Assembly (NCBI GenBank): GCA_039096225.1
Contig: JBBPEB010000004.1
Span: forward strand, 1,178,001-1,242,000
Source: Blastocystis sp. Blastoise
Taxonomy: Eukaryota; Protista; Bigyra: Opalinata
Length of the DNA stretch: 64,000 nt
Reading direction: 5' to 3'
Part shown: in pieces, positions 13,400 to 38,778 of the stretch
Position numbering within the stretch: position 1 is the first letter of the stretch
Layout: each line of letters starts with the position of its first letter
Notes under the pieces: model-generated
Seen by the model: the letters and a program-made list of their open reading frames with translations, nothing else
The model's database searches: none
What the model was told of the DNA's origin: nothing
Position numbers and translations under genes: made by a program

Positions 13400-13529
13400 T
13401 TTAATAATACTTCCGCTCTTCGATCTCCAGTATTTCACTCGATATTACCCCTGTATCGGAAAATCATACTGATTTTCCGATCAGGGGTAATAGACGAGTG
13501 CTGGAGATCTCGGCTGAAGTATTATTAAA
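13400..13529. other. Left terminal imperfect palindrome/hairpin (130 nt; loop TAC at 13467-13469)
   Basis: Stems of 14, 9, 6, 11 and 12 bp are separated by bulges and internal loops, e.g. ATCGGAAAATCA-tac-TGATTTTCCGAT and TATTACCCCTG/CAGGGGTAATA. Confidence 0.95.
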
Positions 13530-13760
13530 ACTTCCGAAACATGGGGAAGTGATAAAAGTAAGGGTAGTTTTAAAAATAATCAAAAAAGTAATTTTAAAGT
13601 GATTTGATTGGTCCATTTGGGGGTGTGCGTCATCGATTTCTAATTCCCTAATATTATAAAATATTTTTTTGCATTATGGATTATGGATTTCATAAATCAA
13701 TAAACCCATAATCCCCTTATATCTACAGAGTTTGGGGAAAAAAATTTCAAAACTGGCTCT
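13407..13760 (+). repeat. Left terminal inverted repeat (354 bp)
   Basis: ATACTTCCGCTCTTCGATC...CAAAACTGGCTCT is the reverse complement of 38425-38778. The lengths are equal and I found no mismatch by eye. Confidence 0.97.
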
Positions 13761-13949
13761 ATTTTTCTTTGTTATTTTTATTATGGTTTATTTTAAATAA
13801 ATAAAAAGACCCGACATAACCGGGGATAGAACCCTTATATGTATATTTTTCAACATATCGTCGTATCCACCTGATATGCCAGGTCTCACTTTATATTTTT
13901 ATTATTATTTTTTTTAAACCAAACAAATTAAATATAATCAAAAAAAAAA

Positions 13950-16900
13950 TTAATAACCAAAATAAGGAGCATAATACTCTTTATTTTCATAAAATATTTT
14001 TAATTTTTTGACATTTTTCGAAAATAAATTAGCGTCAAAGCCGACAATATTCACTACAGAGGTACTAATACGGTATTCTTCCGTGAATTTTTTCATATTA
14101 ACACTATAATTATAAGATTTATCAATAAGAATACCTTTAATACCTATAGCAGTGTGATCCTTATAGTATTCGCTTTGATGAGTTCTACGGTAATCCAACA
14201 TATCAATTTCGTAGAATTCGGAGTTTGCCAGAAATGCAGTACACAACTGCTTGAAAAATTTATCTAGATTTGTCTGGATAGTAAATTTAGCATCTTTATT
14301 AAAATCTTTATAAGCGATAAAGATATCTTCTAAAGATACGACATTAATAAAGAAAGGATCTATTTGTAATTTAGCCTTGACAAAATCTTTCATATTATAT
14401 CCAGAAGAACATTTTTCTAAGAAATCTTCTTTACACGTGGCAATGGCTTGTATTCCTTGTAAAATATCCATATTAAGACGTAAGCTACGTTCAAGATAGT
14501 GGAAGATTAACCAAGAGAATATAGCATTTGTATGTTTTTTAAACAGAAAAGATACGTTAGGATCCATTGGATAGTGATTTTTCTTTTTAGCTAGAAGACC
14601 TTGATTCACGGCTATTTGGATTTCTTCCTCTGTATTATATCGTTTTCTCTTGGTTAAATAATCTCCTTTAGGTTCATAGAGTGTTACTGATGAAGGTGGT
14701 AAATAGCGGCAAAGTGACGGTAAGAAGACTACTCTACGTTCTAAAGGTCCGGCATTCACGGCAGTAGGTTGAATATTAGAGGTAACAAAAAGAATTCCCG
14801 TGTAATTATAGGTTTGAATAACATTAGAGTGAAGAAGACGAGCAGTAGCGTCTGATTTCTTTTCACATAATTCCTTGAATATACGAGATTCTAGGGGATT
14901 TACAGATTTCTTAAACCCTCCTGAATGTTCACTAAGTTCATTCATATAATACATAGTTTTATTATGTAAATTAAGTAGAAATGGAGAAGCTGAAGTTTCT
15001 TCAAAGTTATCAGGATTTACGGGAATACATTGATTATTACCTAGAATATTTTTCATAATATCAGTAGTTATAGTTTTTCCATTGGCACCAGAAGTACCAT
15101 ATAGGATATAACACCAAGTGTGATCGGAACAACAATAGAGTGATTGACAAATGATTTGCATCATAGCATCTGCGTAATCACCGTCGCCTCCACAATAACG
15201 TAATACATGTCTTTGAAATTGTTTTATAGCATCAAAGTCTTCAGGTACATGTTTTGTTTTAGGGACAATTTGTGCATTAATAATCATTTCTTCAAAGATA
15301 ATATCTTCTTTTTCATAGGGAATTACATCATAAGAAGGAGAATGTAAAAGGTGATATTGTGCTCCAGGGAATTCAGCTGTCCAATCATCTACAATGGTTG
15401 GTTCAGGGGCATTTGTTAGCGGAACAACAAAACCGACATTTGTATAAATAACATTTTCTCTATGTTTGAGATGAATATCTCTGAAAGTTTCATAAGATAT
15501 AGCGTAAGTTTTCTGATATCTAGCTAACCATTCCTTATAGTTTTTTTCATTTGTTTTAGAGGCATTTTGAAGTTTATTAAGAGAGAATATATGACTCTTA
15601 AGTTCTTTTTTAAATTGTTTTGCTTGTTGAAAGTTCTCGGCAATTGAATTAGCAAAAGAAGTAATTTCTGATTCAAAGAAGTTAACATCATAAGAATGGT
15701 GAATATTTCTTAAAACGTTGAATTCATCATAAGCATATATCTTTACGAATTTTTTAGATATATCTTCAACCATAACACGATCATTAAAGCAGAAAGTTTT
15801 GAATAATTCCACGAATGCTTGAGAAGTAACTTCATTATGTCTAGATATAGATTTCATCACATGGCAAAAGATATAATCATTCTTACAATCTATTGGTAGT
15901 TTATTGTGTTTTTGTAAGATAAAGAAAAGATACGAAGAATCTTTAAAATAATTATAAGATTCATAGCTAGACGTATTATTCCAAGTAGATTTGAATTTCT
16001 GTAAGCTACGAGTATGAGAACATGAGTTACTTATATTCATAAAAAGATTCAAAGTATCTTCAGAGTTATTATAATTATTTGTAGCACGTATAAGCTTATA
16101 CCATTCATTATGAGATTCAAAATAATATCCATTATCTATTTCAGAAATAAGTGTTAGTATTTGTTCTAATAAATTAAATTCATAATTATCTACTTCTTCA
16201 GAGTTATTATCCATAGTAGCAGGGTTAATATCTTTATAAGCTTTATTAATAGAGTATGCTGTAGTAAAACTATTAATAGTATCTTTATCAAAGGATAATA
16301 TTTTATGAAGGTATCTTTTTACATTATTTTTATTTAATAGTTCTGAAAATAAAACATAATTACTGAAACATACAAAAACATCATTAGGAGAATTATAATT
16401 AAGTAGAGTAGAATAATAAGCATTTTTGATTATATCAGAGTTTTCAAAATTAATTTTTTGCCAAGAATTTGATTCATACATATCGTAGAAATCATATGTA
16501 GACGGAGAATTAGTTTTAGAACATCCAAGCATCATTACACCATTATTTCGATTCTTATTTGCAATTACGGCTCCATCAATAAAGCGACTAGGAATTACAT
16601 TCATAGAGTTACATATAGATTTAACCATATCATCTTCAACAATTTCATTATATATATGAGTTAAAATATCAATTTTTATAAACCAATTGGTGAAGACGTG
16701 CATACCCCAACTATAGAAGAGACCATTTGCTTTTTCTTTTCTATTGACAAGCTTCTTAGTAGTAATAATATTCATATTATTTGGATTATATATCTTTAAG
16801 AACAATTGACTAATACGTTCAATCAGCATATGTATATTATTATCAGATAGATCGGAGAATTCATTTTCTTCACGGCAACAATCAAGATCAAACCATAATC

Positions 16901-17114
16901 GACGATAAGCTTTCTCAACAGTAGTAGGGACAACATCAATATAATGCTTAAGTTCAGGGACTCCACCAGGTTGTTTACTATCTAAATAATATTTATACAT
17001 ATAATCATAGAATTTCGAAGGGTTTTGAACAACTGTAGCAGCCCTGTTATCCATAGTATTTTCTTGATTGAAGGTAGAATACTTACAAATTGTTTGATTT
17101 TGAATTTCAGCCAT
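13950..17114 (-). CDS. Primase-helicase: AEP-like primase + PriCT-2 + D5-like SF3 helicase
   Basis: AEP motifs LWFDLDC, WGMHVF, FIDGAV and MLGCSK; PriCT-2-like HNEWYKLIRA...KSTWN; Walker A GTSGANGKT, Walker B YYMNE, motif C FVTSN, Arg finger LERR. First ATG is at 17114 (the ORF track starts at TTG 17141). Confidence 0.9.
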   Translation of the reverse strand: MAEIQNQTICKYSTFNQENTMDNRAATVVQNPSKFYDYMYKYYLDSKQPGGVPELKHYIDVVPTTVEKAYRRLWFDLDCCREENEFSDLSDNNIHMLIERISQLFLKIYNPNNMNIITTKKLVNRKEKANGLFYSWGMHVFTNWFIKIDILTHIYNEIVEDDMVKSICNSMNVIPSRFIDGAVIANKNRNNGVMMLGCSKTNSPSTYDFYDMYESNSWQKINFENSDIIKNAYYSTLLNYNSPNDVFVCFSNYVLFSELLNKNNVKRYLHKILSFDKDTINSFTTAYSINKAYKDINPATMDNNSEEVDNYEFNLLEQILTLISEIDNGYYFESHNEWYKLIRATNNYNNSEDTLNLFMNISNSCSHTRSLQKFKSTWNNTSSYESYNYFKDSSYLFFILQKHNKLPIDCKNDYIFCHVMKSISRHNEVTSQAFVELFKTFCFNDRVMVEDISKKFVKIYAYDEFNVLRNIHHSYDVNFFESEITSFANSIAENFQQAKQFKKELKSHIFSLNKLQNASKTNEKNYKEWLARYQKTYAISYETFRDIHLKHRENVIYTNVGFVVPLTNAPEPTIVDDWTAEFPGAQYHLLHSPSYDVIPYEKEDIIFEEMIINAQIVPKTKHVPEDFDAIKQFQRHVLRYCGGDGDYADAMMQIICQSLYCCSDHTWCYILYGTSGANGKTITTDIMKNILGNNQCIPVNPDNFEETSASPFLLNLHNKTMYYMNELSEHSGGFKKSVNPLESRIFKELCEKKSDATARLLHSNVIQTYNYTGILFVTSNIQPTAVNAGPLERRVVFLPSLCRYLPPSSVTLYEPKGDYLTKRKRYNTEEEIQIAVNQGLLAKKKNHYPMDPNVSFLFKKHTNAIFSWLIFHYLERSLRLNMDILQGIQAIATCKEDFLEKCSSGYNMKDFVKAKLQIDPFFINVVSLEDIFIAYKDFNKDAKFTIQTNLDKFFKQLCTAFLANSEFYEIDMLDYRRTHQSEYYKDHTAIGIKGILIDKSYNYSVNMKKFTEEYRISTSVVNIVGFDANLFSKNVKKLKIFYENKEYYAPYFGY

Positions 17115-17194
17115 TTTCAAATAAATATTTAAAAAATTCAAATAAATTAAATATTATTTTTAAAAGATTCAAATTAAATATTGTTTAAAAGTCT

Positions 17195-17460
17195 GTCATA
17201 TCAGGAAAAAAAATTAGAATGAATGGTTTTGAATATTTCTTCAACGTTGTCATTCCGGAAAGATTCGAAATGAATGGTTTTAAATATTGCTCCAAACGAC
17301 GTCATATCAGGAAAAACAAAATATGTGTTTTTTAGTATTGTTTCAAACGTTATCATTCCGGAAAGATTCGAAATGAGTGGTTTTGAATATTGCTCCAAAC
17401 ACCGTCATTCCGGAAAGATCCAAAATTGGTGGTTTTGAATATTGCTCCAAACTCCGTCAC
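17195..17460 (+). repeat. About five tandem 52-bp repeats in the divergent primase/SSB intergenic region
   Basis: Units start at 17195, 17249, 17301, 17352 and 17404. Consensus GTCATTCCGGAAAGATTCGAAATGAATGGTTTTGAATATTGCTCCAAACNNN. Confidence 0.9.
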
Positions 17461-17624
17461 TATGACTTAGCTATTTGTCAAAAGATATTGAAATATGATT
17501 GGCTAAATTCAAATTTTAGTGGAAACTATTATTTTTTTAGTATTCAGTCCAAATATTTTTGCAATTGCAATATTTATATAAATTTTATTTATTTATTTAT
17601 TTGAATTTTACAATTTTTTTGAAG

Positions 17625-18365
17625 ATGTCTAGTGTTATTGTCCGCCCTGAAGATTCTTTTGATGCTACGAAGTTATCCCTTGTTAAGTTAGACCCAATTG
17701 ATAATATTTCTGAAAGGTATGATGTTTATTATAAAGAAAAAAGATTATTTATTCAAACTCCCGCCTTAATTGCCCCTTTTGCTTTGAAATATTTCTCTGA
17801 TGGATTTTCTTCGAAGTTAACTTTATTTATGGATAACGAAGACTTCAATTGTCTTGTTAAGTCAATTGATGATTTTGTATATATGTCTTTATTCCCTACC
17901 GCTGAGAGTCGTGCTGTCTATATGGATTTTGTAATGAAGAAGTATCCTTATTCTCTTGATAACTCCAATTGTATTACTTGTTCTTCTGATAATTGTTCTT
18001 GTTTATCTGTTAATAGGCCTTCAAACTTACTTTATTATATAGATTCTCCTTTAAAGAGTACTCCTACTAAGGTTATGACTATCAATGTTCCTTTAAAAGA
18101 TAGTTTTGTCCGTTTGAATACTTATGATTGTGAACTGAATTTATTAACTTGTTTTCGAAATGAAAAATACTCTGTTATGAAATTTAATGAAACATTCTTA
18201 ACTCCTGGTAGTACTATTAAAGTGCTTTTTTCTGTAAGTGTTAATTATAAGATAGTCAATGGTAATCCTCGCTATTTCTTTAACTTATATGCAACTCAAA
18301 TGATGATTATTGAAAGAGGTGATCAACATTATAGTACTATGCCTGTATGTTCTATAAAACCTTAA
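17625..18365 (+). CDS. Probable OB-fold ssDNA-binding protein (NCLDV/T7 gp2.5-like)
   Basis: LFIQTP...PF motif, a helix ending IDDFV, and C-terminal PGSTIKVLF...FFNLYATQMMI resemble NCLDV SSBs. It is divergent from the primase-helicase. ATG at 17625. Confidence 0.65.
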   Translation: MSSVIVRPEDSFDATKLSLVKLDPIDNISERYDVYYKEKRLFIQTPALIAPFALKYFSDGFSSKLTLFMDNEDFNCLVKSIDDFVYMSLFPTAESRAVYMDFVMKKYPYSLDNSNCITCSSDNCSCLSVNRPSNLLYYIDSPLKSTPTKVMTINVPLKDSFVRLNTYDCELNLLTCFRNEKYSVMKFNETFLTPGSTIKVLFSVSVNYKIVNGNPRYFFNLYATQMMIIERGDQHYSTMPVCSIKP

Positions 18366-18462: not shown

Positions 18463-19305
18463 ATGTCAAAACAGTATTCATCCTTTGTTATTTGGCCTGG
18501 TAGTAAACGTCGGGTAGCTGGTCAAATAGCAGATATTTTAAAGTCAGTGCCTAGAAATAATAATAATGAAAATCCAATGTATATTGAACCTTTTATTGGT
18601 AGTGGTCATGTATTTTTAAATTTAATGATGCAAGATTATCAAGATAGAACTGATCGTAAATATGTAATTAGTGATACTAATACTGATTTAATAAATTGTT
18701 GGAAATATATTCGTGATTATCCAATAAAATTAATAGTTGAATTAGAAAAATTAAATGATGTAGAAGATACTTCTGATAATTATTATGAATTACGTAAAAT
18801 ATTTAATACTTGTACAAATACTTTGATGCGTTGTGCTTACTTTATTGCTTTAAATAAACGATGTTTTTGTGGTATATATTCTGTAAATCAAAAAGATGAA
18901 TTTAATACTCCATGGGGATATAAAAGAAATAAAAATATATTTAATAAAGAAAATATTTTACAAATATCATCTTTATTAAATTATAATAATGTAACTATAT
19001 TAAATGATGATTATCGTGATATAATAAAGAAATATCCTAAGGGTATATATTATATGGATCCACCCTATATGAATACATTTGATCGTTATAGTAAAGATAA
19101 ATTTTCAAATAATGAATTCTTAGAAACTGTGAAAGAAATGAAAGATGCTATATGTGTATATATATCATGCAGTAATGAAATGAAAAAATCTTTTGATGAT
19201 AAAGATATACAATATACTTCAGTATTATCATTTTATCGTCAAAATACATATGTAAGAAGTAAAGGTGTATTATATGATGAATATATTTTACATATAAATT
19301 ATTAA
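18463..19305 (+). CDS. DNA adenine N6-methyltransferase, D12/Dam family
   Basis: WPGSK, YIEPFIGSG (SAM-binding motif I), ISDTN.DLIN, and catalytic YMDPPY. Confidence 0.93.
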   Translation: MSKQYSSFVIWPGSKRRVAGQIADILKSVPRNNNNENPMYIEPFIGSGHVFLNLMMQDYQDRTDRKYVISDTNTDLINCWKYIRDYPIKLIVELEKLNDVEDTSDNYYELRKIFNTCTNTLMRCAYFIALNKRCFCGIYSVNQKDEFNTPWGYKRNKNIFNKENILQISSLLNYNNVTILNDDYRDIIKKYPKGIYYMDPPYMNTFDRYSKDKFSNNEFLETVKEMKDAICVYISCSNEMKKSFDDKDIQYTSVLSFYRQNTYVRSKGVLYDEYILHINY

Positions 19306-19374: not shown

Positions 19375-20781
19375 ATGGAAACTTGTATATTAGGTATGCC
19401 AAGCCCTGGTGCGTTTGGTATAAATAAAATAGCAGTTGGTAAAGAAAATAGACCTTATAAACCTCAACCATTAAAAACATTAGATGAATATAATCCATTA
19501 ATATTTGAAGTAGGTCCAAATTCATCTTTTTTAGTATCAAATTTAAAAAAGAAAAATCAAATAGAAAATAAAATAAATTCTTATGTTAATCGTGATAAAG
19601 AATTTGGTATTAATACAGGTGCAGGAGGAGCTTTAATACAAGCAAAACCTGTAGGAAAAGGTGTAATAAATAAAAGGCGATATGATGATACTGTAGATAA
19701 TCAAGAAGAAGCTCATACTAGTGATGATCCACAGATTAATCCTACTAATTTTAAAGCACGTAATCGTATAGGTATAAAAGGTAAAGGACTAGCTTATAAT
19801 AGTCGTGAATTAAATAAATTACAAAATAATAAAGGTGGTGGTATAATTACAAAAACTTTAGGTCATACAATGAAAGCTATAGGTAAAGCTACAAAACGTA
19901 AATCAGTAGAACATATAGGTAATATGTTAACTGGTGATAATAATGATTCACAAGGTGGTATAGTAAATGGTTCATTAAATATAATAAAGAAGATAGCCAA
20001 TAGTAATCAAGGTAATGGAATTCATAGAAAATTAAATAAAACCTTTGGTGGTACATTATTAGAAAATAATTTATCAGGAGTTATTACTGCGATGGAGTCT
20101 TCTAGAGGTGGTTCTTTAGATGATAAATCTGTAAGGAAATTCTTTAAAACAAAAAATAAAAAAGGGAAATTAATTCCACCACAAATAGCTAATGCTTTAC
20201 AATTTATGGTAGATAACCGTAAAGGAATGCGTGCAGCAGGCTTAAAGCCACTGAATATGTCTAAATTACGTAAATATATAGATTTTAATGAATCTCCCGA
20301 TGGTGAACATTTAAGATTAAAGCGTGGTGGTGCTGTAGCAGATGAGGTAATGGGTGTAATAAATAATTTACCAAATATATGGAATATGGTAAAAGAAATA
20401 CCTTCTAAAGTAATGTATTATGCACAACCAGGTAAATTAAAAGAAGCATGGGATACAATGAAAGAAGAAAATGAAATCAAGAAACAAGAAATGGAAGTAG
20501 AAGGTGATTATCATAAAGAAGAATTAAAAGAAAGAAGGAAAAATTTAGAAAATTATCAAAAACAGAAAGCAGCAAATTCTCAACAAATAAATCAAAATGA
20601 TAATTTAATAAGTGATAATTCTCAAAAAACAAAAGATATTAAACAAATAGATGATAAACCCTATAAAGCAAGTGGTGTATTACGTGCTGCTGGTAGTAAA
20701 CAAAAATTAAAAGGTAAAGCATTTTATGAATATATGCAACAATGTAAACGAAATAAACATGGCAATAAGTCAAAAAACTAA
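19375..20781 (+). CDS. Basic virion core-like precursor (468 aa) with many GG/GxG putative protease sites
   Basis: K/G-rich, with motifs GAGGA, IKGKG, NKGGG, SQGG, NQGNG, TFGG, SRGG and LKRGG. It ends on A AAA AAC TAA, overlapping the protease frame. Confidence 0.6.
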   Translation: METCILGMPSPGAFGINKIAVGKENRPYKPQPLKTLDEYNPLIFEVGPNSSFLVSNLKKKNQIENKINSYVNRDKEFGINTGAGGALIQAKPVGKGVINKRRYDDTVDNQEEAHTSDDPQINPTNFKARNRIGIKGKGLAYNSRELNKLQNNKGGGIITKTLGHTMKAIGKATKRKSVEHIGNMLTGDNNDSQGGIVNGSLNIIKKIANSNQGNGIHRKLNKTFGGTLLENNLSGVITAMESSRGGSLDDKSVRKFFKTKNKKGKLIPPQIANALQFMVDNRKGMRAAGLKPLNMSKLRKYIDFNESPDGEHLRLKRGGAVADEVMGVINNLPNIWNMVKEIPSKVMYYAQPGKLKEAWDTMKEENEIKKQEMEVEGDYHKEELKERRKNLENYQKQKAANSQQINQNDNLISDNSQKTKDIKQIDDKPYKASGVLRAAGSKQKLKGKAFYEYMQQCKRNKHGNKSKN

Positions 20782-21362
20782 GAGGAGGAGGTTTAGAAGA
20801 AAGTAAAAATGAGAAAATAATACAAGAACACTTAGATTGTGATAATCCTATTATAAGTGATTCTGATAGAAAAGTAACTCCTAGATCTCCTGAAAATTTT
20901 TCTCAAAAAATAAGTCAATATACATTAATTCCTAAAAATTTAATAAAACAAATTTATAATTATGGTTATTTAAATAAACCAACAAGTGCTGTAGCTTGTA
21001 GTCGTGCAAAATCAACAATGAATATGTTAAATCATTCAAATCCAAATGGATATAATTATTATAATAGTTATGAAGAATTTGAAAATAATATAGATAATGA
21101 TAGAACAAAATATAATATGATATTTCATCAAAGTAATTCAGATCCTAACTTTGGACATTTTGAAGCTATTATCTATACTCCAAAGAAAATAGAACATTAT
21201 AGTAGTCTTGGGAATAAACCTAATTTTAGTAGAAATTTTGTAAATAGTCATAACATAGTATTCAGTCCTATTCAACATCAAAGCACATCTGAAAATGCTA
21301 ATGGTTGCTTTTATTATTCTTTATTATATTTATTAAGTAATAGTAATATAATGCCTTGTTAA
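20769..21362 (+). CDS. Adenain/Ulp1-like cysteine maturation protease (frame open from 20769; first ATG only at 21018)
   Basis: GHFEAI (catalytic His), IEHYSSLG (equivalent to the YFDSxG strand, with Asp replaced), QHQ...NGCFYYSL (oxyanion Gln and catalytic Cys). Confidence 0.75.
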   Translation, partial: VKKLRGGGLEESKNEKIIQEHLDCDNPIISDSDRKVTPRSPENFSQKISQYTLIPKNLIKQIYNYGYLNKPTSAVACSRAKSTMNMLNHSNPNGYNYYNSYEEFENNIDNDRTKYNMIFHQSNSDPNFGHFEAIIYTPKKIEHYSSLGNKPNFSRNFVNSHNIVFSPIQHQSTSENANGCFYYSLLYLLSNSNIMPC

Positions 21363-25178: not shown

Positions 25179-26768
25179 ATGAAATTATTAAGAATAAATA
25201 ATACTATTCCTATTCAATCAGATGTTGATTTACTTAATGAATCATTTGCATTTGAATATGATTGGACTAATGTTGATAGTCGTTTTACTAATTTTAATCA
25301 AAGTTATTTAGAATTATCTATTATAGTAAATGATCAAGAGGATACGATACCAGAACATTTAACAAGTACTGAAGAAGATGAAAATTATTGGGGAAATTTT
25401 ATTACTCCTATATATAAAAATGGTGCATCTTCTCAGTTAAAATTATGGGAAGTAACTCCTGGTAATGGTGTATGGAATGATAGTCTAGGTGTTACATATA
25501 CATTTAATAATTTATTATTTTTTACAAAACAAGAATTATTAAAATATTTATTAGATCAGTTAAAACAGTTAGTTAATATATATTCACTTATTGATAGTGC
25601 TGATATAGAAATGGTTTATGGTTTACCTGATGGTAGTGAACGTGCTATAAAATATCATGAATCTTCATTATTTTCATCTAGAGCTAGAAAAATGATTTTA
25701 TTAAAAGATATTCCAAAATATGAATTAGAAAAATCTATGTATGGTGAATCTTTATATTGTCCACAAAATGAATTAACATCATTTCGTTATTTAGTAAGAC
25801 ATAATAATGAATCATTAAAAATAGCTATACCATTATATCTTATAACTGGTTTAGGTGTTGATGGTGATTGTTTAAGTTTAGTAAAACATATGAAAATATT
25901 ATTTCGTACAGCTCCTATTAAATCAATGCTTAAAAATGATGATATTATATATACAAAAAAATTTATACCTTCAAAAACATCAGGTCAAATATATGATAAA
26001 GTAAATGAACAAACTATATGGAATACTTTAAATATAAGTTGGATAGATAAATTTATTTTAAAAGGTGCAAATTTATATTTAATGACATATGAAGATGTAA
26101 CATTTAATCATGATGAATTATATAAAACAATACCTACCTATATACAACTAGATTATAGATATGATCCTATTAAAAGAAATACATTTAATATTAATAGAGC
26201 ATTACCATTTATACCAGAATATGTATTATTTTATTTTACTGAAGGATGGGATATTAATAGAGTTAGTAATATTCCTACACCATATATATGGCCAACATAT
26301 TTAAGTTGTTTAGTAGGTAATGTACAAATGTTTCCACAAACTGAATTTCCTACTCAAAAATATTATAGTAATTTATTATTAAATGGTTGTGTTGGTGATA
26401 CTCATGAATTATATCATGATCAATGCCCAAATAAATCATTATATTCATTATGGGCAGATAATTCAAATCCTGAAACAAGTTTAGATTATGATCATTGGAT
26501 GAAACATCCTATATATATTATACCTTGTAAAAGTTTAATGAATGTTATTCCTAAACAAGGTGTAGAATTAAATTTTGATTGTGTTCTTGATGCTCATAAT
26601 GTAAAATATATTTTTAAAGATGATTCTACATATTTTGATGAATTAGGAAAATCATCTGATATGATTGTTAAACATGCTGGATATGAAAGACAAGTTAATG
26701 AAGAAATAAATGAAACTCATATGTATACAATACATATGGTTGCAGTTAGAAGTTCAAGAGATATTTAA
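25179..26768 (+). CDS. Double jelly-roll major capsid protein paralog 1 (529 aa)
   Basis: FTNFNQSYLEL, KIAIPL and PEYVLFYF motifs; collinear homology with the next gene; located in the MCP-penton-ATPase block. Confidence 0.75.
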   Translation: MKLLRINNTIPIQSDVDLLNESFAFEYDWTNVDSRFTNFNQSYLELSIIVNDQEDTIPEHLTSTEEDENYWGNFITPIYKNGASSQLKLWEVTPGNGVWNDSLGVTYTFNNLLFFTKQELLKYLLDQLKQLVNIYSLIDSADIEMVYGLPDGSERAIKYHESSLFSSRARKMILLKDIPKYELEKSMYGESLYCPQNELTSFRYLVRHNNESLKIAIPLYLITGLGVDGDCLSLVKHMKILFRTAPIKSMLKNDDIIYTKKFIPSKTSGQIYDKVNEQTIWNTLNISWIDKFILKGANLYLMTYEDVTFNHDELYKTIPTYIQLDYRYDPIKRNTFNINRALPFIPEYVLFYFTEGWDINRVSNIPTPYIWPTYLSCLVGNVQMFPQTEFPTQKYYSNLLLNGCVGDTHELYHDQCPNKSLYSLWADNSNPETSLDYDHWMKHPIYIIPCKSLMNVIPKQGVELNFDCVLDAHNVKYIFKDDSTYFDELGKSSDMIVKHAGYERQVNEEINETHMYTIHMVAVRSSRDI

Positions 26769-26878
26769 TAATATATTTTATAATATATTTATTTTATTAT
26801 TATTTATTTATTTTATTTTTATTTAATAAATATATATTTAATTATATATATATTTTTTAATAAAATATTTAAATAAAA

Positions 26879-28180
26879 ATGAATGGATTTCCACAAGATT
26901 TTTTACCTGCAGTAAATCATCAAACTATTACAGAAAATTTTATAACTGTATCTGTAACAACTGATCAAAGTTTATTAGAAGCTCCATGTAATGTAGATTT
27001 TCGTTATAATACTGTTGATAATCCTTATATTGATTTTAGTAATTCTTATTTAGAATTATGGTTTGGTGTTAGAAAAAGTGCTACTAATAATACTGCTGTT
27101 ACACAAAGTTCTAATATATATTCTATAGTTGATAAAGTTAATATTAATATGACTTATATTAGTCCAGTTGGAAAAGATGTAGCTATAAACTTTGCTGAAC
27201 CATCATTAAATAGTAGTAAAGCTAGAAAATTTGTAGCACTTAAAGAATTAAGTAAATTTGAATTAGATAAATCTATGTATACTCCATGTGAAAAATTATA
27301 TGCAAAAAAAGATGAATTACATCTTATAGAAGCTATGAGACAAAATGCTACAACTTCAAAAGATGCATTTACAACTTATAAAATATATATTCCTTTAATG
27401 CTTATTACTGGTTTAGCTACATTTGATTGTGCTATTAAAATAAAATCAATGTCATTTCAATTTGTTTTAAATCATATTAAGAAAATAGCTACAAACTTAG
27501 ATGGTATTTCAGCATTTGTTATTCAAAAAGCATTTATTAATTTTAGACATATGTATGATATTAACTGGGGTAATGATCCAAAAAATTTAATAAAATGTAT
27601 ACCTAATAATTGTGAAATTTGTTTTTTTACTGAACAAATTGGTACTCAAACAATAACAAATTCAACTGGTAATACTGCATCATTATCTTTTACAGGAGAT
27701 TTAGTAACCAGTAAAAATCGAAGTATTACATTTGTTCCTGATTATTGTTTAATGTATATTACAGATTCAGAAGATAGTATGATTCCTGTTAATACTCATT
27801 GTCCAACAACTATTAATTTTCAAATTGGTGGAAAGAATATGTTTACACAAACACAATTTCCTACAGCTACTAGATTTATACCTGATACATATACTTTAGA
27901 AATTATTCCTAATAGTATGTTATATAATGTATGGAGATCACAATCAAATCCTATGTGTGTATTAGATGGTAATGAATGGTATAATCAACCTATATATTTA
28001 TTTCCTATTGCTTCTGTTGTTGATGTTAATACAGAATCTGGTTGTGAAATTAATTATTATATACAAACATCTCCTTCTGGTATTAATAAATATCAGTTAA
28101 CTAATGGTGCTTCTAAAACACAAAATATATTTATTAATTTTATTTTTGTGAAATTTGTTAGAGATGGTTCTATGAATTAA
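26879..28180 (+). CDS. Double jelly-roll major capsid protein paralog 2 (433 aa)
   Basis: IDFSNSYLEL N-terminal motif typical of Polinton/PLV MCPs, plus KIYIPL and PDYCLMY; beta-rich; typical size. Confidence 0.8.
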   Translation: MNGFPQDFLPAVNHQTITENFITVSVTTDQSLLEAPCNVDFRYNTVDNPYIDFSNSYLELWFGVRKSATNNTAVTQSSNIYSIVDKVNINMTYISPVGKDVAINFAEPSLNSSKARKFVALKELSKFELDKSMYTPCEKLYAKKDELHLIEAMRQNATTSKDAFTTYKIYIPLMLITGLATFDCAIKIKSMSFQFVLNHIKKIATNLDGISAFVIQKAFINFRHMYDINWGNDPKNLIKCIPNNCEICFFTEQIGTQTITNSTGNTASLSFTGDLVTSKNRSITFVPDYCLMYITDSEDSMIPVNTHCPTTINFQIGGKNMFTQTQFPTATRFIPDTYTLEIIPNSMLYNVWRSQSNPMCVLDGNEWYNQPIYLFPIASVVDVNTESGCEINYYIQTSPSGINKYQLTNGASKTQNIFINFIFVKFVRDGSMN

Positions 28181-29009: not shown

Positions 29010-30056
29010 ATGGTTAATAAAAAGAATTTATTAGAAAATGATAAAAGTGGTTGTGGTGTATTAGCATTTAAATATGGTAAAACACATCATAAAACTTATG
29101 AATCAAAATTTATATTAATTATTGCTAGAACATTTAGTGGTAAATCATGGTTAACAGTTAATTTACTTGCTTCTATGGATTTAAATAATAAATTTCGTCA
29201 AGTAAGTTTATTTTGTCCTAAAGCTAGTTCTATGAATGAATGTTATACATCATTACAAGATTTATTAGAACATGCTGAAATAAAATATCAATGGTATGAT
29301 AGTATTGATGATAAATTTAAAAAAATAAAAAGTATTGATGATCTTGTAACTACATATAAATTACCAGAACATAATTTTATTATTTTTGATGATATATATC
29401 CATTATCAAAAGAAACAAAACTATTATTGATATCATTATTATCTAAAGGTAGACATTATAAACAAAATGCTATTATATGTTTACAAAGCCATAAAGATAT
29501 TACAAATCAAAGTGTATTAAGTCAAGTAAGTCATTTTTTTATTAATAGTCAAGTTTTAAAACGTGATCCTGGTTTATTATTAAAAAAATTACAGTTAGAT
29601 CCACCTAATTTAGAAGAAATATTATCTGATATGGAATTAATAGAAGATAAACATCAATTTTTTATGTTAAAACAAGGTTGTGATGATTTAATACCTTGGA
29701 CTAATCCTGATGTTGGTACAAAACAAAATGCTTATAAAATGATGAAAAAACGTAAATGGACTGATATGGATGAAGCAAATGAAAAACGTGAAGAAGGAAA
29801 TGGTGGTAATATTAATTCTGATAATAAGAAAAGTAATAATGTAAATAATGATTATCTTTCAAAAAGAATAAAAAAAATATTACCAAATGAAGAAGATATA
29901 CAACTACGTGGTACAGAAATACCTGATAAAGATAAACCTAAAGATGATATTCTGCAAATATTACATGAACAAATACTACAAGATCAAAGATTAAAATATT
30001 TTAATCCATATCCTATGAAACGTAGATATCATGGTGCTCCATATCAATATAATTAA
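29010..30056 (+). CDS. A32-like (FtsK-HerA) DNA packaging ATPase
   Basis: Variant Walker A ARTFSGKS, Walker B FIIFDD, and KGRH...ICLQS (Arg finger and conserved Gln). Confidence 0.9.
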   Translation: MVNKKNLLENDKSGCGVLAFKYGKTHHKTYESKFILIIARTFSGKSWLTVNLLASMDLNNKFRQVSLFCPKASSMNECYTSLQDLLEHAEIKYQWYDSIDDKFKKIKSIDDLVTTYKLPEHNFIIFDDIYPLSKETKLLLISLLSKGRHYKQNAIICLQSHKDITNQSVLSQVSHFFINSQVLKRDPGLLLKKLQLDPPNLEEILSDMELIEDKHQFFMLKQGCDDLIPWTNPDVGTKQNAYKMMKKRKWTDMDEANEKREEGNGGNINSDNKKSNNVNNDYLSKRIKKILPNEEDIQLRGTEIPDKDKPKDDILQILHEQILQDQRLKYFNPYPMKRRYHGAPYQYN

Positions 30057-31925: not shown

Positions 31926-33650
31926 ATGCAAAGTGCACCTATTGGTAATCAGTGTCCAGGTTCATTTCATTGTAATAAACTTGGAACAAAAGAATTATGG
32001 TTAGGATATACTAGGCCACATAAAGTTCCTACTATTCTTGTTACACAACCTATTAACTATAATATAATTCCTAATAGTATTGAAAAAGTATGGGAAGATG
32101 AAAATGAAATGCATACACGTAGTTATCTTATGGGTAATACCCCTGAAAATAATAAAGCTTCTATTTCTAATATTCCTATTGAAACATCACCAAATAATGA
32201 TTCTGAAGAATATGAATCTAATGATTCTGAAGAAGGTGATTCTGAAGATAATGAATCTGATGATGATGAATCTGATGAGTCTCTAAAAGGATCTGGAGGA
32301 GGACTACTGCCAGATGGCAGAATCCCAAGGCATATCGTAAAACGTCTACAAAGATATATTAACGTTGATTACCCTAGATTCAGACGAAATAATCCTGATT
32401 CAGACAATAAATATGATTCTCTATTAACATCTGAAAATTTTAATAAATATATTAAAGTTGATAAAAGTGGTTGTGGTATACTAGATCCCGAAGGAAGTGG
32501 TTGGTGGGATACCGCCAAAAATTTATTATCAAAAACATATAATACTGGAAAATCCGTTTATAACCTTGGTACTAAAGCAGTTAAAGGTGCTAGTAAATTA
32601 TTAAATGGTATTGATTATGCTACAAATATTCCTGGAAAAATTAAGGAGAAATTAGATACTGTTTCTAAAAATATTAATGGGAAAATCATACATACAAAAA
32701 ATGGAATTAAAAGGGAATATTATTCTCGTTTTGGAGATTCTACTGAAGCACCAAAAACTATGTTAAATAATTTAAAAGCTTTAAAAAATACTCAATATGA
32801 GGGTATGACTGATAAAATGAGTAAGTTAACAAAAAAACGTATTCATAAGTCTTATATTAAAAGTGATGAATTAAAAACAAATGAAGGTAAACAAAATGTT
32901 ACTAAACGTATGAACAATGTTGATAATTTAAAAGATGGTTTTAACGCATTGGCTAAAGCTGAAAATAAAAAAATTGATAAATATAATAAAAGTCAAATTA
33001 AAGCTCAAAAACAAAAACAAAAAGATATTGAATATGAAAAAGCTAAACAAGGTACTTTACAGAAAATTAAAGGTAGTCTATCAGATATGGTTACTAATGC
33101 TGGTAAAAAAATATATAATAAAACTGTTGGAGAAGTTACAGGTAATAAGTATACTGAAGAAAAACCAGATCAAAAGAATAAATTAGATCTTGTGGAAACT
33201 GGAGGAGATAGACGTAAAGTAACTAAACCTAAAAAACAATTTAATAAAGATACTTTAAGCCAATTGAGTGATGATAAAAAATCTGCAATTGAACAAAAAC
33301 GTGCTGAACGTGCTGAAAGAATTAAACATACTGAAGAAATTAATCAAAAACGTAGAGATGGTTTTAAAGCAAGAAGAGCTGAAGCCCATAAAAAAGTAGA
33401 TGAAGAAGAAACAAAACGAAAAAAAGAGAATGATGAGTGGAATAATAAGAGCTACTTAGGTCAATTCTACTCTTATATGACGACGCCAAGTAAATCAAAA
33501 GGAGAAACTGAGAAACAAAAAGACGACGGTGATTGGGTAAATAAAGAAAATGACATAAGCAACATCGATGTTGCGTCAGGTATGCGTCGACGTCGACGAA
33601 CCCTACGTAAGAAAAAGAGAAACCAGATTCTCAAAGAAATAAATTGGTAA
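31926..33650 (+). CDS. Virion precursor-like protein (574 aa) with an acidic block, GxG sites, an amphipathic helix and an Arg-rich tail (adenovirus pVI-like organisation)
   Basis: LKGSGGG, KSGCG, EGSG-WWDTAKNLLSKTYNTGKSVYNLGTKAVKG, and C-terminal VASG-MRRRRRTLRKKKR. Confidence 0.6.
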   Translation: MQSAPIGNQCPGSFHCNKLGTKELWLGYTRPHKVPTILVTQPINYNIIPNSIEKVWEDENEMHTRSYLMGNTPENNKASISNIPIETSPNNDSEEYESNDSEEGDSEDNESDDDESDESLKGSGGGLLPDGRIPRHIVKRLQRYINVDYPRFRRNNPDSDNKYDSLLTSENFNKYIKVDKSGCGILDPEGSGWWDTAKNLLSKTYNTGKSVYNLGTKAVKGASKLLNGIDYATNIPGKIKEKLDTVSKNINGKIIHTKNGIKREYYSRFGDSTEAPKTMLNNLKALKNTQYEGMTDKMSKLTKKRIHKSYIKSDELKTNEGKQNVTKRMNNVDNLKDGFNALAKAENKKIDKYNKSQIKAQKQKQKDIEYEKAKQGTLQKIKGSLSDMVTNAGKKIYNKTVGEVTGNKYTEEKPDQKNKLDLVETGGDRRKVTKPKKQFNKDTLSQLSDDKKSAIEQKRAERAERIKHTEEINQKRRDGFKARRAEAHKKVDEEETKRKKENDEWNNKSYLGQFYSYMTTPSKSKGETEKQKDDGDWVNKENDISNIDVASGMRRRRRTLRKKKRNQILKEINW

Positions 33651-33699
33651 ATTCAAATATTTTATTAAATTCTGCCGCCTTAATTTGAATTTTTTGAAA

Positions 33700-34800
33700 A
33701 TGAACTGTACTATTCCTATGAAGAAAATGAAGAATATACATTATAATTCTATTTACTTTACGATTATCCATGTAGCTAAGTGGACTGATGAATGGAAAAA
33801 TAAGCAATTGAGTAACTTTGAACAATATATTAATCCTATGCCTGAGAAAGTATTCATGCGAATGATTGGTACACCTACTATCTTCATTGATTATATTCGT
33901 AATAAGTATAAACCTTCTATTAATACAATTAAAGCAATTGCCGAACTTATTATGTTTATCTATAAAGAAGATAAAACCTTAAAGAAGCGTATTATTGTTA
34001 TTAAAAGCTGGGAAGCCATGTATTCTATTATTAATAGTATTTATACTGATGTTCTTAAATCGAAGACTGATGCTGCTTTAAAGATGTTAAAAGATAACAA
34101 TTGCTCTTTAGAAAATTTTAAAAAGATAAGAGATACTTGTTCTGTTGCTGATCCTCTACGTTTATTAATTGATCTATATGTCTTAATGCCTCCTGCTCGT
34201 GCTGATTATGGTAACTTGATGATATATAAAGAAAAACCTGAAAAACCTGAATCTACTTCTTATGTCATTCCTACTCTAGATAGTACTATTGAAAATCCTT
34301 CTTATGAAATTCATGTTACTGAATATAAAACTGTCAAAACTTATGGTGAACGTATACTTAAGTGTTGTTCTGAATTTAATTCAGATTTAAATGAAATACT
34401 TACTTTGAATTCTAATAGTCGTTATTTATTCCATAAACCTGGTAAGAATGAATGTTATTCTCCTAAACGCTTTTCTGAATTTGTTAAAAATATTATGAGA
34501 CGTGTTGTTCCTGGAGGTATTACTATTAATAGTCTACGTAAACTCTATTGCTCTACTCATGGTAATAACTTTGAAGAAATGAATCAATTGGCTTTAGATC
34601 TCGGGCACTCTCTTAAAACTCATATTAATAACTATATGTCTATTACTACTACTGATTTCTTAACTAATTTAACTAAAGAAAATCAACTTACTATTACTCC
34701 TGTTCCTGCTGATGATGAAGATATACCTATTAACGTTAATAATGATTCTTCTAATCTTGAAAACTGGTGTAAAAACTTAAGTCAATGTTGGACTGAATAA
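33700..34800 (+). CDS. Tyrosine recombinase 1 (PLV type)
   Basis: Catalytic order R (PPARADY), K (YKTVKTYG), xxLR (INSLRK), H (LGHS), Y (HINNY). ATG at 33700. Confidence 0.9.
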   Translation: MNCTIPMKKMKNIHYNSIYFTIIHVAKWTDEWKNKQLSNFEQYINPMPEKVFMRMIGTPTIFIDYIRNKYKPSINTIKAIAELIMFIYKEDKTLKKRIIVIKSWEAMYSIINSIYTDVLKSKTDAALKMLKDNNCSLENFKKIRDTCSVADPLRLLIDLYVLMPPARADYGNLMIYKEKPEKPESTSYVIPTLDSTIENPSYEIHVTEYKTVKTYGERILKCCSEFNSDLNEILTLNSNSRYLFHKPGKNECYSPKRFSEFVKNIMRRVVPGGITINSLRKLYCSTHGNNFEEMNQLALDLGHSLKTHINNYMSITTTDFLTNLTKENQLTITPVPADDEDIPINVNNDSSNLENWCKNLSQCWTE

Positions 34801-34869
34801 ATCTTAATTTATTTATATATACTTGTTTAGTTAACAAAACTATTTTTTATTTTATTTATTTATAACAAC

Positions 34870-36669
34870 TTAATATTTTAATTTTAAAAATAGACCTGCA
34901 CCATGATTATGTTTCTTAGGAATCTTTATACGTATTATATTTGGTTTTCGTATAATATTAGACTGACTACGTGTAGCATAAGGGTGTTCTTTACCATCTT
35001 CTACATAAGCATCATACTCACTACTTCTCTTACTCATATTATGTAATGCCTGACTTTCTCTAGGTATCATCACACCAGTACGAGTATCTTTATCGATTTG
35101 ACGAACTAATGATTTACTCTTTATATATTTTATATATTTCTCACGATCTTTATCTTTCCAAATTACAGTCTTATCTGGACAACCCTCAGGTAATTGATTT
35201 TCTAAATCTGTTCTATTTGGATATTCACCATTTTTAAATTTTGAATATATTTCTAATAAACCTTTTTTAAACTCTGGAAAATCATTTAATTTATTAAACG
35301 ATATATTCTGACCCTCACTTAGATACTCTCCAAAATTCTCTTCACCAAATACATCTGTATAATCTTCATGATATTCTAAAATACGTTCTAAAAATCTTCT
35401 ATAGAGAAACATATCCTTCTCTTTATCTTCTAATAACCATTCTTTAAATAGAGATCTACCATTTATCTGAATAGGTCTAAATTGTTTATCTATTTGTTTT
35501 TTCTTTTTATTTACACGTTCTAAGAAGGGTGTTATATATTGTTCTAAATGAGTTGATGTAGCATGTAGCATCTTCTCTACACTTTTCTCAAATATTTCTT
35601 GACCACGTACTTCTAACTGAGGATCTCCACTCTCTGTTAATCTTAAATATATTTTATAATAACATTGAGCGAACAAATGACGTATTACATCACAACCTGT
35701 TATTAACTGTCTTTCTACTACTTGACCATTTATCTCATCTTTATATGTAAATATTCTACCTAAATGCATCTTTATATATTCTCCAAATTTATTTTCTCCA
35801 ATAAATCCATGAGTTATTTCATTTATAAATAACTCATCTCTTGGATATAATCTTAATGATCTTGCTAATACATTTAAAAATTCTTCTGAGACTTCTTGTT
35901 TTGTTTTAACACGATTTATACCTAACTGGTATACATTCTTAGTATCATTTACATTTATTGTTAAATCATTTAAATCTAAATAATTTGTAGACTTTTTAAG
36001 ACTTGAAGGTACTTTAGAACTACGAGTATATATCTTACAATCACCATAATCATTACGACAACATAAACAATCATAAGTTAATACTAATAAATAACTATTA
36101 ACATAAAATAAATCATTTGGATTCTTTAAATAATCATCTTTTGTTTTATTTATTAATATATCCCATTGAGCTCCAGACTCAGTTATTCTATCGGTATACT
36201 CATAATGTCTAGCAGTAGTAGCATTATGTTGTAGAGATACCCATATTGTTTTATATTTCTTTATATTAGACCTTAGAAATACAGGAGACCTTAATATTTG
36301 TCTATCATCTGTTAATATATCTATATTTTCCATTATAAACTCTAACATAGCCATATAGTTAGCTACAGAGGTCTTAGATAACCCTCCTGTTTGACCATGA
36401 GCTTTTGTCTCAGAATTTAATAAAATACTTGAAATATATTCAGGATAGCCTAATGCTTCTATACAGAAGTATGGAGCTAAATCAGGTTTATGAATACTTT
36501 CATCAATATTAATATTAGCAGCTACACGAAACTTAGAACATATAGTACGCATATTACGCATATATACTTCATAAGTAGATTCACGGATACGTTTAAAATG
36601 ATATAAATCACGAATACAGTTCATAAAAAAATCTTCACATTCTTCATCAGAATCCCCACGTTTATACAT
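34870..36669 (-). CDS. Tyrosine recombinase 2 (divergent, about 200-aa C-terminal extension)
   Basis: R (LCCRNDYG), K (DTKNV), xxIRH (DVIRHLF), H (MLHAT), Y (HLEQY); N-terminal STYEVY...SVANY resembles a core-binding domain. Confidence 0.82.
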   Translation of the reverse strand: MYKRGDSDEECEDFFMNCIRDLYHFKRIRESTYEVYMRNMRTICSKFRVAANINIDESIHKPDLAPYFCIEALGYPEYISSILLNSETKAHGQTGGLSKTSVANYMAMLEFIMENIDILTDDRQILRSPVFLRSNIKKYKTIWVSLQHNATTARHYEYTDRITESGAQWDILINKTKDDYLKNPNDLFYVNSYLLVLTYDCLCCRNDYGDCKIYTRSSKVPSSLKKSTNYLDLNDLTINVNDTKNVYQLGINRVKTKQEVSEEFLNVLARSLRLYPRDELFINEITHGFIGENKFGEYIKMHLGRIFTYKDEINGQVVERQLITGCDVIRHLFAQCYYKIYLRLTESGDPQLEVRGQEIFEKSVEKMLHATSTHLEQYITPFLERVNKKKKQIDKQFRPIQINGRSLFKEWLLEDKEKDMFLYRRFLERILEYHEDYTDVFGEENFGEYLSEGQNISFNKLNDFPEFKKGLLEIYSKFKNGEYPNRTDLENQLPEGCPDKTVIWKDKDREKYIKYIKSKSLVRQIDKDTRTGVMIPRESQALHNMSKRSSEYDAYVEDGKEHPYATRSQSNIIRKPNIIRIKIPKKHNHGAGLFLKLKY

Positions 36670-38014: not shown

Positions 38015-38424
38015 TTTTAAGCTTTTATAATAAACAACAAATAAAATAAAATATGAACTTTTAAGAGAGCATTTCAAAGATAAAAATCAATCAGAGAAAC
38101 TCTGGTTTTTATAAAAATCAATGTTTTCATTGGTTGTTTTTCACTAAAAATGGGTTTTTCCTTTATGTCTTGATTTCTTATGTTTATCAATGGTTTTTAT
38201 TGATAGAAAACATTTACTATACATAATTGATTTTATTATTATAATATTATCAATTGAAACTTTTTTAAAAACTAATATTTTATATAAAAACATATATTTT
38301 TGACAATTTTAAATCAATTAATAACATTTTTTATACTTTTAAACATTAAATAATATAAATAAAAAATAAATAATATAAAATAATAAAATAAAACATATAA
38401 ACAAGCTTTCAATTGAAAAATAAA

Positions 38425-38778
38425 AGAGCCAGTTTTGAAATTTTTTTCCCCAAACTCTGTAGATATAAGGGGATTATGGGTTTATTGATTTATGAAATCC
38501 ATAATCCATAATGCAAAAAAATATTTTATAATATTAGGGAATTAGAAATCGATGACGCACACCCCCAAATGGACCAATCAAATCACTTTAAAATTACTTT
38601 TTTGATTATTTTTAAAACTACCCTTACTTTTATCACTTCCCCATGTTTCGGAAGTTTTAATAATACTTCAGCCGAGATCTCCAGCACTCGTCTATTACCC
38701 CTGATCGGAAAATCAGTATGATTTTCCGATACAGGGGTAATATCGAGTGAAATACTGGAGATCGAAGAGCGGAAGTAT
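38425..38778 (-). repeat. Right terminal inverted repeat (354 bp)
   Basis: Reverse complement of 13407-13760; ends ...GAAGAGCGGAAGTAT, followed by host CAAGTTCTG. Confidence 0.97.
38656..38778. other. Right terminal imperfect palindrome/hairpin (loop GTA at 38716-38718)
   Basis: Inverted copy of the left hairpin, with the outer arm 7 nt shorter. Confidence 0.95.

Follow-up and report, generated by a model that had tools for sequence, protein, structure and literature searches.

Two convergent tyrosine recombinases and a putative core site at the base of terminal palindromes in a predicted polinton-like virus of Blastocystis

The window analysed here is a stretch of 64,000 nucleotides from Blastocystis sp. 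Blastoise (contig JBBPEB010000004.1, positions 1,178,001 to 1,242,000), and all coordinates below refer to it. It contains a 25.4-kb element whose edges are set by terminal inverted repeats (TIRs) of 363 bp and whose GC content is 25.4%, compared to 22-23% in the flanks. Its sequence identifies the element as an endogenous polinton-like virus, of primase-helicase/tyrosine recombinase type, in a gut protist of the Blastocystis type; near-identical proteins carry the NCBI name Blastocystis sp. Blastoise. Two convergent open reading frames (ORFs) of this element, separated by 69 nt, are predicted to encode tyrosine recombinases (YRs), and they are the subject of this report:

33700..34800, + strand: YR1, tyrosine recombinase, 366 aa counted from ATG, with an acidic disordered tail; catalytic residues R167, K210, R280, H303 and Y312
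34870..36669, - strand: YR2, tyrosine recombinase, 599 aa, with a C-terminal extension of ~210 aa that includes a basic tail; catalytic residues R205, K244, R330, H369 and Y378

Both proteins are, on the evidence of their AlphaFold models (mean pLDDT 73 each), tyrosine recombinases of Cre/Xer type with an intact R-K-R-H-Y set. Each model contains a core-binding domain and a catalytic domain and matches recombinases over both, and the top rows of the VIA structure comparison for both models were XerA, Cre, XerH and Int with Z scores of 9-13. The YR1 model scored Z 12.8 with XerA (root-mean-square deviation (rmsd) 15.0, 262 aligned residues), 11.8 with Cre (rmsd 7.1, 265 aligned) and 7.1 with TelA (rmsd 9.2, 228 aligned); the YR2 model scored 10.8 with XerA (rmsd 13.6, 267 aligned), 10.4 with Cre (rmsd 5.0, 287 aligned), 9.6 with lambda Int and 5.1 with TelA (rmsd 5.5, 193 aligned). 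The original prediction, made from the nucleotide sequence, had recognised two convergent YRs, had proposed a comparison of structures, and had considered a link to the telomere resolvases TelN and ResT. The comparison bears out the fold of both proteins, with XerA, Cre and lambda Int as the best matches, and argues against the link, because both predicted models are nearer to XerA and Cre than to TelA, the one protelomerase present among the rows. Tn1549 Int was also among the fold matches (Z 9.3 and 10.5). With Foldseek, YR1 matched XerA (E 1e-4) and the full YR2 model matched nothing at E<=0.001 (the best being XerA at 0.04). Neither YR was matched by Pfam at E<=1, and the best relevant match in PDB sequence searches was an integrase with E 0.22. 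The Atlas neighbours of YR1 were viral clusters, one of them named as a YR.

The catalytic residues, which had also been noted originally for both proteins, are conserved in the relatives. R167, K210, R280, H303 and Y312 of YR1 are invariant in 15/15 aligned rows, and among fetched YR2-family proteins longer than 500 aa the RND motif is present in 191/191, CDxIRH in 190/191, KMLH in 190/191 and the Tyr motif in 191/191; these 191 proteins are a highly redundant set chosen by their VNDTK motif, so that conservation of the Lys is circular. The histidine of the HxxR motif is replaced by N277 in YR1 and D327 in YR2, as had been noted originally, yet it is also missing from every one of the 15 rows of the YR1 alignment, which have Asn or Ser instead, and its loss therefore characterises these virus-type YRs as a group. 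To read the missing histidine as evidence of inactivity or of a protelomerase was considered and rejected, because the same 15/15 rows lack it.

The ends of the element and their junctions with host DNA have the following features:

13400..13406, + strand: 7-nt extension at the left junction with the host, TTTAATA, an inverted copy of TATTAAA and likely a recombinase overlap (coupling) sequence
13407..13769, + strand: left TIR, 363 bp, 99% complementary to 38416-38778
13407..13522, + strand: left imperfect terminal palindrome, with a loop of 3 nt and ~19 arm bases left unpaired (fold z -14.5)
13516..13536, + strand: putative recombinase core, GAAGTAT / 7-nt TATTAAA / ACTTCCG, where the fold-back has its base; its role is suggested by its sequence
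38416..38778, - strand: right TIR, with the palindrome at 38663-38778 and a core copy at 38649-38669; neither a 7-nt extension nor a target-site duplication (TSD) at the junction

A palindrome of 116 bp is common to both ends (right-end fold z -11.1), and at the left end only it gains 7 bp more on each side; the palindrome of 130 bp that had been described originally is real as a fold-back end, but what the two ends have in common is shorter. The heptamer ACTTCCG occurs four times in the element, always at the base of a palindrome, and once in the host flank. The arms of the core are placed 2 nt asymmetrically around the 7-nt overlap. At the left host junction the inverted TATTAAA copy continues by exactly 7 nt, and at the right junction by 0; the frequency of the 7-mer is about 0.05-0.1% of host positions, and a TSD touching both junctions was sought and not found. 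The two host joints thus lie 7 nt apart on the core, and they may represent the cuts in the top and bottom strands of a single core, staggered by 7 nt at the 5' side, which is the geometry of YR cleavage. YRs exchange strands through a 3'-phosphotyrosine at core sites whose overlap is 6-8 nt, a range into which the 7-nt offset fits.

This arrangement differs from that of the telomere resolvases, which cut a short inverted repeat and then refold it (PMC12270096). A hairpin that is cut at its centre replicates into a perfect inverted repeat; the imperfect palindrome, with its ~19 unpaired arm bases, is therefore unfit for centre cutting of the TelN/ResT type, which further disfavours the link to those enzymes, and points to cleavage at its base, giving flip/flop ends. 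Terminal palindromes accompany replication genes other than the protein-primed DNA polymerase B (pPolB) in other protist viruses (10.64898/2026.07.28.741278).

Two short motifs offer clues to when the enzymes may be made and where they may go:

33684..33702, + strand: start motif TTTGAATTTT...TTGAAAATG of YR1, common to the primase-helicase and orf246, likely an early promoter or leader
34891..34902, - strand: GxG-hydrophobic motif GAGL, residues 590-593 of YR2, a predicted viral protease site kept in tails only

Just upstream of three of the 19 ORFs examined, namely those of the primase-helicase, orf246 and YR1, TTTGAATTTT is followed by TTGAA(A/G)ATG, in agreement with the replication-gene start context originally proposed for YR1. 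All three occurrences of TTTGAATTTT in the 25.4-kb element are at starts, and there is one in 38.6 kb of host flank; the rough probability of this start pattern by chance is 3e-6, for a motif that was picked after being seen. YR2 is without the start motif. Its long extension does end, as predicted, in a tail with a GxG motif, HNHGAGLF (G590). Within the last 70 aa, GxG[LIVMFW] was found in seven of nine YR2 representatives (six of eight length classes) and in the body of none of the nine (shuffle p 0.03-0.07 for each positive representative); in the 191 YR2-family proteins it was found in 158 tails and 0 bodies. The tails of the YR2 family are basic and that of YR1 is acidic. The GxG-hydrophobic motif is also present in orf468, orf574, orf231, orf529, orf773 and the ATPase. 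In mavirus, the protease cleaves at GG|X and GX|G, and the integrase is found within virions (PMC6048507, PMC6428243). By analogy, the conserved, basic, GxG-bearing tail of YR2 fits a prediction of virion packaging, and YR1 may be an early protein and YR2 a late and packaged one.

The YR2 sequence matched 162 homologues, and the YR1 sequence matched two clusters comprising four sequences. Matches of YR2 under the same organism name fall into four clusters of 3, 1, 3 and 21 members, and several further YR2 lineages come from ENA/Logan contigs, the longest of about 26 kb. Most of the 162 matches are on public assembly contigs. YR1 was detected only in four sister copies, all of which carry YR2 too, and the three named YR1 copies adjoin a YR2 by locus tag. 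Three of the four sister copies are 98-100% identical, and their integration is therefore recent. A profile search with YR1 added only marine relatives, and word-based searches, which have limited sensitivity, gave no YR1 match for the YR2 clusters of 21 and 3 same-named copies; absence of YR1 from the other YR2 lineages is likely, if unproven, on these sequence searches. When this copy is compared with the most divergent sister, YR1 is 91% identical in the catalytic domain and 71% in the core-binding domain (Fisher p 6e-6), YR2 is 88% identical in both, and the primase is 97% identical. The difference between the domains of YR1 argues that it has been kept functional; on these identities it is a maintained enzyme with a fast-changing DNA-binding domain. 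YR2, as far as sequence matches can tell, is the marker of a widespread virus lineage associated with Blastocystis, no description of which was found in the literature searched.

In the best tree of 22 proteins, in which the branches are long, YR2 joins a marine clade and YR1 falls among other environmental YRs; monophyly of YR1 and YR2 is not rejected (p-AU 0.06). One sequence (P0202), repetitive and without catalytic motifs, was left out of the YR alignments as spurious. Five marine loci of 2.3-12.4 kb, all distant relatives, have one YR each in the DNA examined, and the long palindrome is absent from all four marine loci scanned, in which the ends lie mostly outside the sequence. One of the marine loci (L001, 703-5585) is a virus-like contig with one related YR, a GIY-YIG nuclease and, near the contig end, a D5-type primase-helicase; this module resembles the end module of Gezel-14T. 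The YR2 lineage (P0005-P0193) comprises three families of elements that bear a single Blastocystis name, one of them with 21 proteins, and at least five further lineages on public contigs of up to about 24-26 kb, which is the size of a whole genome.

The reading that we favour, with a probability of about 0.45, is that YR2 is the main recombinase of the lineage, likely carried in the virion to insert the genome, and that YR1 is an early accessory enzyme of excision and resolution. Both YR1 and YR2 would cut the basal core, leaving a 5' stagger of 7 nt. One strand-pair exchange between the outer and inner copies of the core, whether on the chromosome or on a replicated junction, would produce hairpin-closed flip/flop ends, a cruciform being a Holliday junction, and these ends could prime replication by the primase-helicase. 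When the virus enters a cell, YR2, packaged and trimmed by the protease, would link the ends with AT-rich DNA of the host; the target would not be duplicated, and the 7-nt overlap would stay at one end after insertion, as with the integrase of Tn916. YR1, acting early, would help to excise the provirus and would resolve replicated junctions at the base of the cruciform into hairpin-closed ends. YR1 is probably a separately acquired helper and not an obligatory partner of YR2.

Several points weigh against this reading. The junction geometry comes from one copy, the 7-nt match is AT-rich and was noticed after the fact, and the junction would be explained equally by a simple circle as intermediate, with arms of 12 bp, a spacer of 7 bp and no hairpin. 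The roles assigned to early and late enzymes derive from promoter class. Two of the nine YR2 representatives are without the tail motif and have a looser GG or GxG instead, and the adenain-like ORF, the candidate for the protease that would trim YR2, has no Pfam match and no meaningful PDB match. YR1 lies wholly beyond the reach of the YR2 profile, and the low sensitivity of the word-based searches bears on the apparent absence of YR1 elsewhere.

Four other explanations were weighed. A strict division of labour, in which YR1 is an obligatory hairpin resolvase, YR2 only integrates and excises, and both are present in all relatives with fold-back ends, would account for the replication-gene start motif of YR1, the fold-back ends of the element and the presence of both genes in all four sister copies. 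We consider it unlikely: YR1 is limited to two clusters as opposed to 162 YR2 matches, with no YR1 match for the clusters of 21 and 3 copies; neither protein is TelA-like by fold; and the imperfect palindrome is unfit for centre cutting. The YR2 lineages that seem to lack YR1 weaken this explanation to the extent that low-sensitivity protein searches allow.

Redundant or alternative integrases are likewise improbable. YR1 would then be the ordinary recombinase of polinton-like viruses, the companion of a primase-helicase, present through module replacement or for a second target such as the genome of a helper virus, and the palindromes would be replication primers only. End modules of a primase-helicase and a YR are mobile (PMC11296320), double integrases consisting of a YR and a retroviral-type integrase (RVE) exist and are read in the same way (10.64898/2026.07.28.741278), and marine relatives possess a single YR whose neighbours are a GIY-YIG nuclease and a helicase gene of D5 type, as in L001. 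The tree, too, favours separate origins, and the YR1/YR2 block is 81/85% identical between copies, the primase 97%. Redundancy would sit poorly, however, with two conserved catalytic domains that show no signs of decay, and with a core motif and junction offset that tie recombinase chemistry to the base of the palindrome.

The original prediction had also raised the possibility of a XerC/D-like pair, an obligate partnership in which each enzyme acts on one half of the asymmetric core and exchanges one strand pair. The adjacent genes are homologous by a partly circular profile match (99%, E 1e-19), the core arms are asymmetric by 2 nt about the 7-nt overlap, and the monophyly test gives p-AU 0.06; but their different start motifs imply different timing, YR2 is widespread (162 matches against two clusters) and seemingly without YR1, and the best tree separates the two, so that such a pair is very improbable. 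That YR2 is mainly a structural DNA-binding core protein of the virion, of recombinase descent, leaving YR1 as the sole working integrase, is suggested by its long extension, basic tail and protease-type motif resembling those of core precursors and by the Asp in place of the HxxR His, but it is hardly credible given that 190-191 of the 191 family proteins keep the motifs with Arg, Arg, His and Tyr and that multicopy YR2 lineages (21 members) seem to be without YR1.

The following features of the element provide the setting of the two recombinases:

13950..17114, - strand: primase-helicase of 1054 aa, preceded by the shared start motif (phrog_1156, E 6e-14)
17625..18365, + strand: orf246, with the shared start motif; no Pfam match
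18463..19305, + strand: Dam-type adenine methyltransferase (PF02086, E 4e-37)
19375..21362, + strand: orf468, Gly-rich with four GxG motifs and likely a core precursor, then an adenain-like ORF in the -1 frame; both recognised by motifs
25179..26768, + strand: second capsid paralogue of 529 aa, which shares 30% identity with orf433 over 367 aa (E 7e-42)
26879..28180, + strand: double jelly-roll major capsid protein (MCP), orf433, 433 aa (Atlas TM 0.67 to the Sputnik-MCP cluster and 0.62 to the capsid cluster of nucleocytoplasmic large DNA viruses (NCLDV))
29010..30056, + strand: packaging-type ATPase (phrog_2666, E 1.5e-9; Walker A-like motif)
31926..33650, + strand: orf574, basic with three GxG motifs, by its sequence likely a virion core precursor

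The hallmarks of polinton-like viruses present in the element are the packaging ATPase, the TIRs, a size within 15-30 kb, a YR accompanied by a primase-helicase, and a double jelly-roll capsid protein (capsid clusters of virophages and NCLDV match it with TM 0.62-0.67). Polinton-like viruses of the primase-helicase/YR type have been described (PMC10120064, PMC11296320, PMC12220804). The sole published Blastocystis virus found in the literature searched has PolB and an adintovirus-like integrase, unlike the present element (PMC8502044). Searches for related loci of the virus family were negative for six of six queries of viral_contigs (YR2, the YR2 alignment, the capsid, the marine YR clade, P0200 and the primase), and no locus of the family was found by searching metagenome_contigs with the YR2 alignment or by a search of phage records. 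A search of sequencing runs gave two matches only, with small shares (0.10), which say nothing on expression or habitat. We presume a likeness of orf246 to viral single-stranded DNA-binding proteins, for which there is no database support (no Pfam match).

Several other observations concern these genes. The capsid paralogues are encoded in tandem (25179-28180, + strand; 529 and 433 aa, 30% identity), which suggests a capsid of mixed capsomers. In the region 20765-21362 (+ strand), orf468 stops right after the heptamer A-AAA-AAC, and the -1 frame is open from 20769, via an RGGGL motif, into the protease-like ORF (21018-21362), in which His, Gln and Cys motifs were recognised by eye; the overlap is either a programmed -1 frameshift producing a polyprotein of core protein and protease or a homopolymer error. 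The Dam-type methyltransferase (18463-19305, + strand) is intact, in a eukaryotic provirus, and there are GATC sites within the terminal palindrome; it may be speculated that methylation of these sites modulates end processing. Between the divergent primase-helicase and orf246, the region 17170-17470 contains imperfect repeats with recurring CATTCCGGAAAGAT and TTTTGAATATTGCTCCAAA words and is a possible origin or regulatory region.

Poxviruses have mismatched flip/flop hairpins that are resolved at the junction by a RuvC-type resolvase, and Tn916-type integrases leave a coupling sequence at one end without a TSD. The mismatched hairpins proposed here would be like those of poxviruses, which differ in the type of resolvase and in not integrating; the coupling sequence at one end and the lack of a TSD are shared with Tn916 and Tn1549, although Tn916 has neither hairpins nor a capsid. 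Compared to the polinton-like viruses of primase-helicase/YR type, including Gezel-14T, those associated with entomopoxviruses and the cryptophyte C1 group (PMC11296320, PMC12220804, PMC10120064), the element is alike in size, TIRs, capsid and ATPase, and its primase-helicase, YR and lack of a TSD also agree with these viruses. It differs from them, as far as those sources describe them, in having two YRs rather than one, one of them with a 210-aa extension and a protease-type tail, and in its two capsid paralogues, its gut-protist host and its large imperfect palindromes with a basal core. The endogenous virophages and polinton-like viruses of Halocafeteria seosinensis, for which a model of hairpin priming has been proposed, also combine palindromes at the TIR ends with replication independent of pPolB, and some have two integrases (RVE and YR); their palindromes, however, go with RVE integrases and TSDs, in contrast to the two YRs and absent TSD found here (10.64898/2026.07.28.741278). 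With TelN, TelK, ResT and TelA (PMC12270096), the YRs share tyrosine chemistry and the proposed formation of hairpin ends from a replicated junction, whereas their folds are nearer to Cre, Xer and Int and the predicted cut is at the base of a long imperfect palindrome and not at the centre of a short repeat. Mavirus resembles the element in integrating into protist genomes but has an RVE integrase and pPolB instead of YRs, and the presence in the virion that is reported for the mavirus integrase is, for YR2, a prediction (PMC6048507, PMC6428243).

Polinton-like viruses that encode YRs, terminal palindromes and double integrases are already known. A lineage associated with Blastocystis that combines a basal core site with two YRs bearing opposite timing clues was not found in the literature searched, of which supplements were not part; nor, within the same scope, was any paper found on a polinton-like virus with two tyrosine recombinases or on virophages in conjunction with hairpins and cruciforms.

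On the question of how polinton-like viruses that have neither a protein-primed polymerase nor a retroviral integrase copy their ends and enter and leave chromosomes, the sources cited offer circular intermediates and hairpin priming as proposals only. The element supplies a defined 21-bp core with predicted cuts, two candidate enzymes whose timing clues are opposite, and recent multiple copies, and the question can therefore be reduced to an oligonucleotide assay. Tentatively, ordinary Cre/Xer-type recombinases might serve a family of gut-protist viruses as the resolvase of poxvirus-like mismatched hairpin ends. A single basal core with a 7-nt overlap would then be used both for integration and for freeing hairpin-closed genomes from concatemers and chromosomes; release would fall to an enzyme made early, and insertion to one matured by the protease in the virion. 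If true, this would be a route by which a eukaryotic virus arrives at hairpin telomeres with neither a protelomerase nor a RuvC resolvase.

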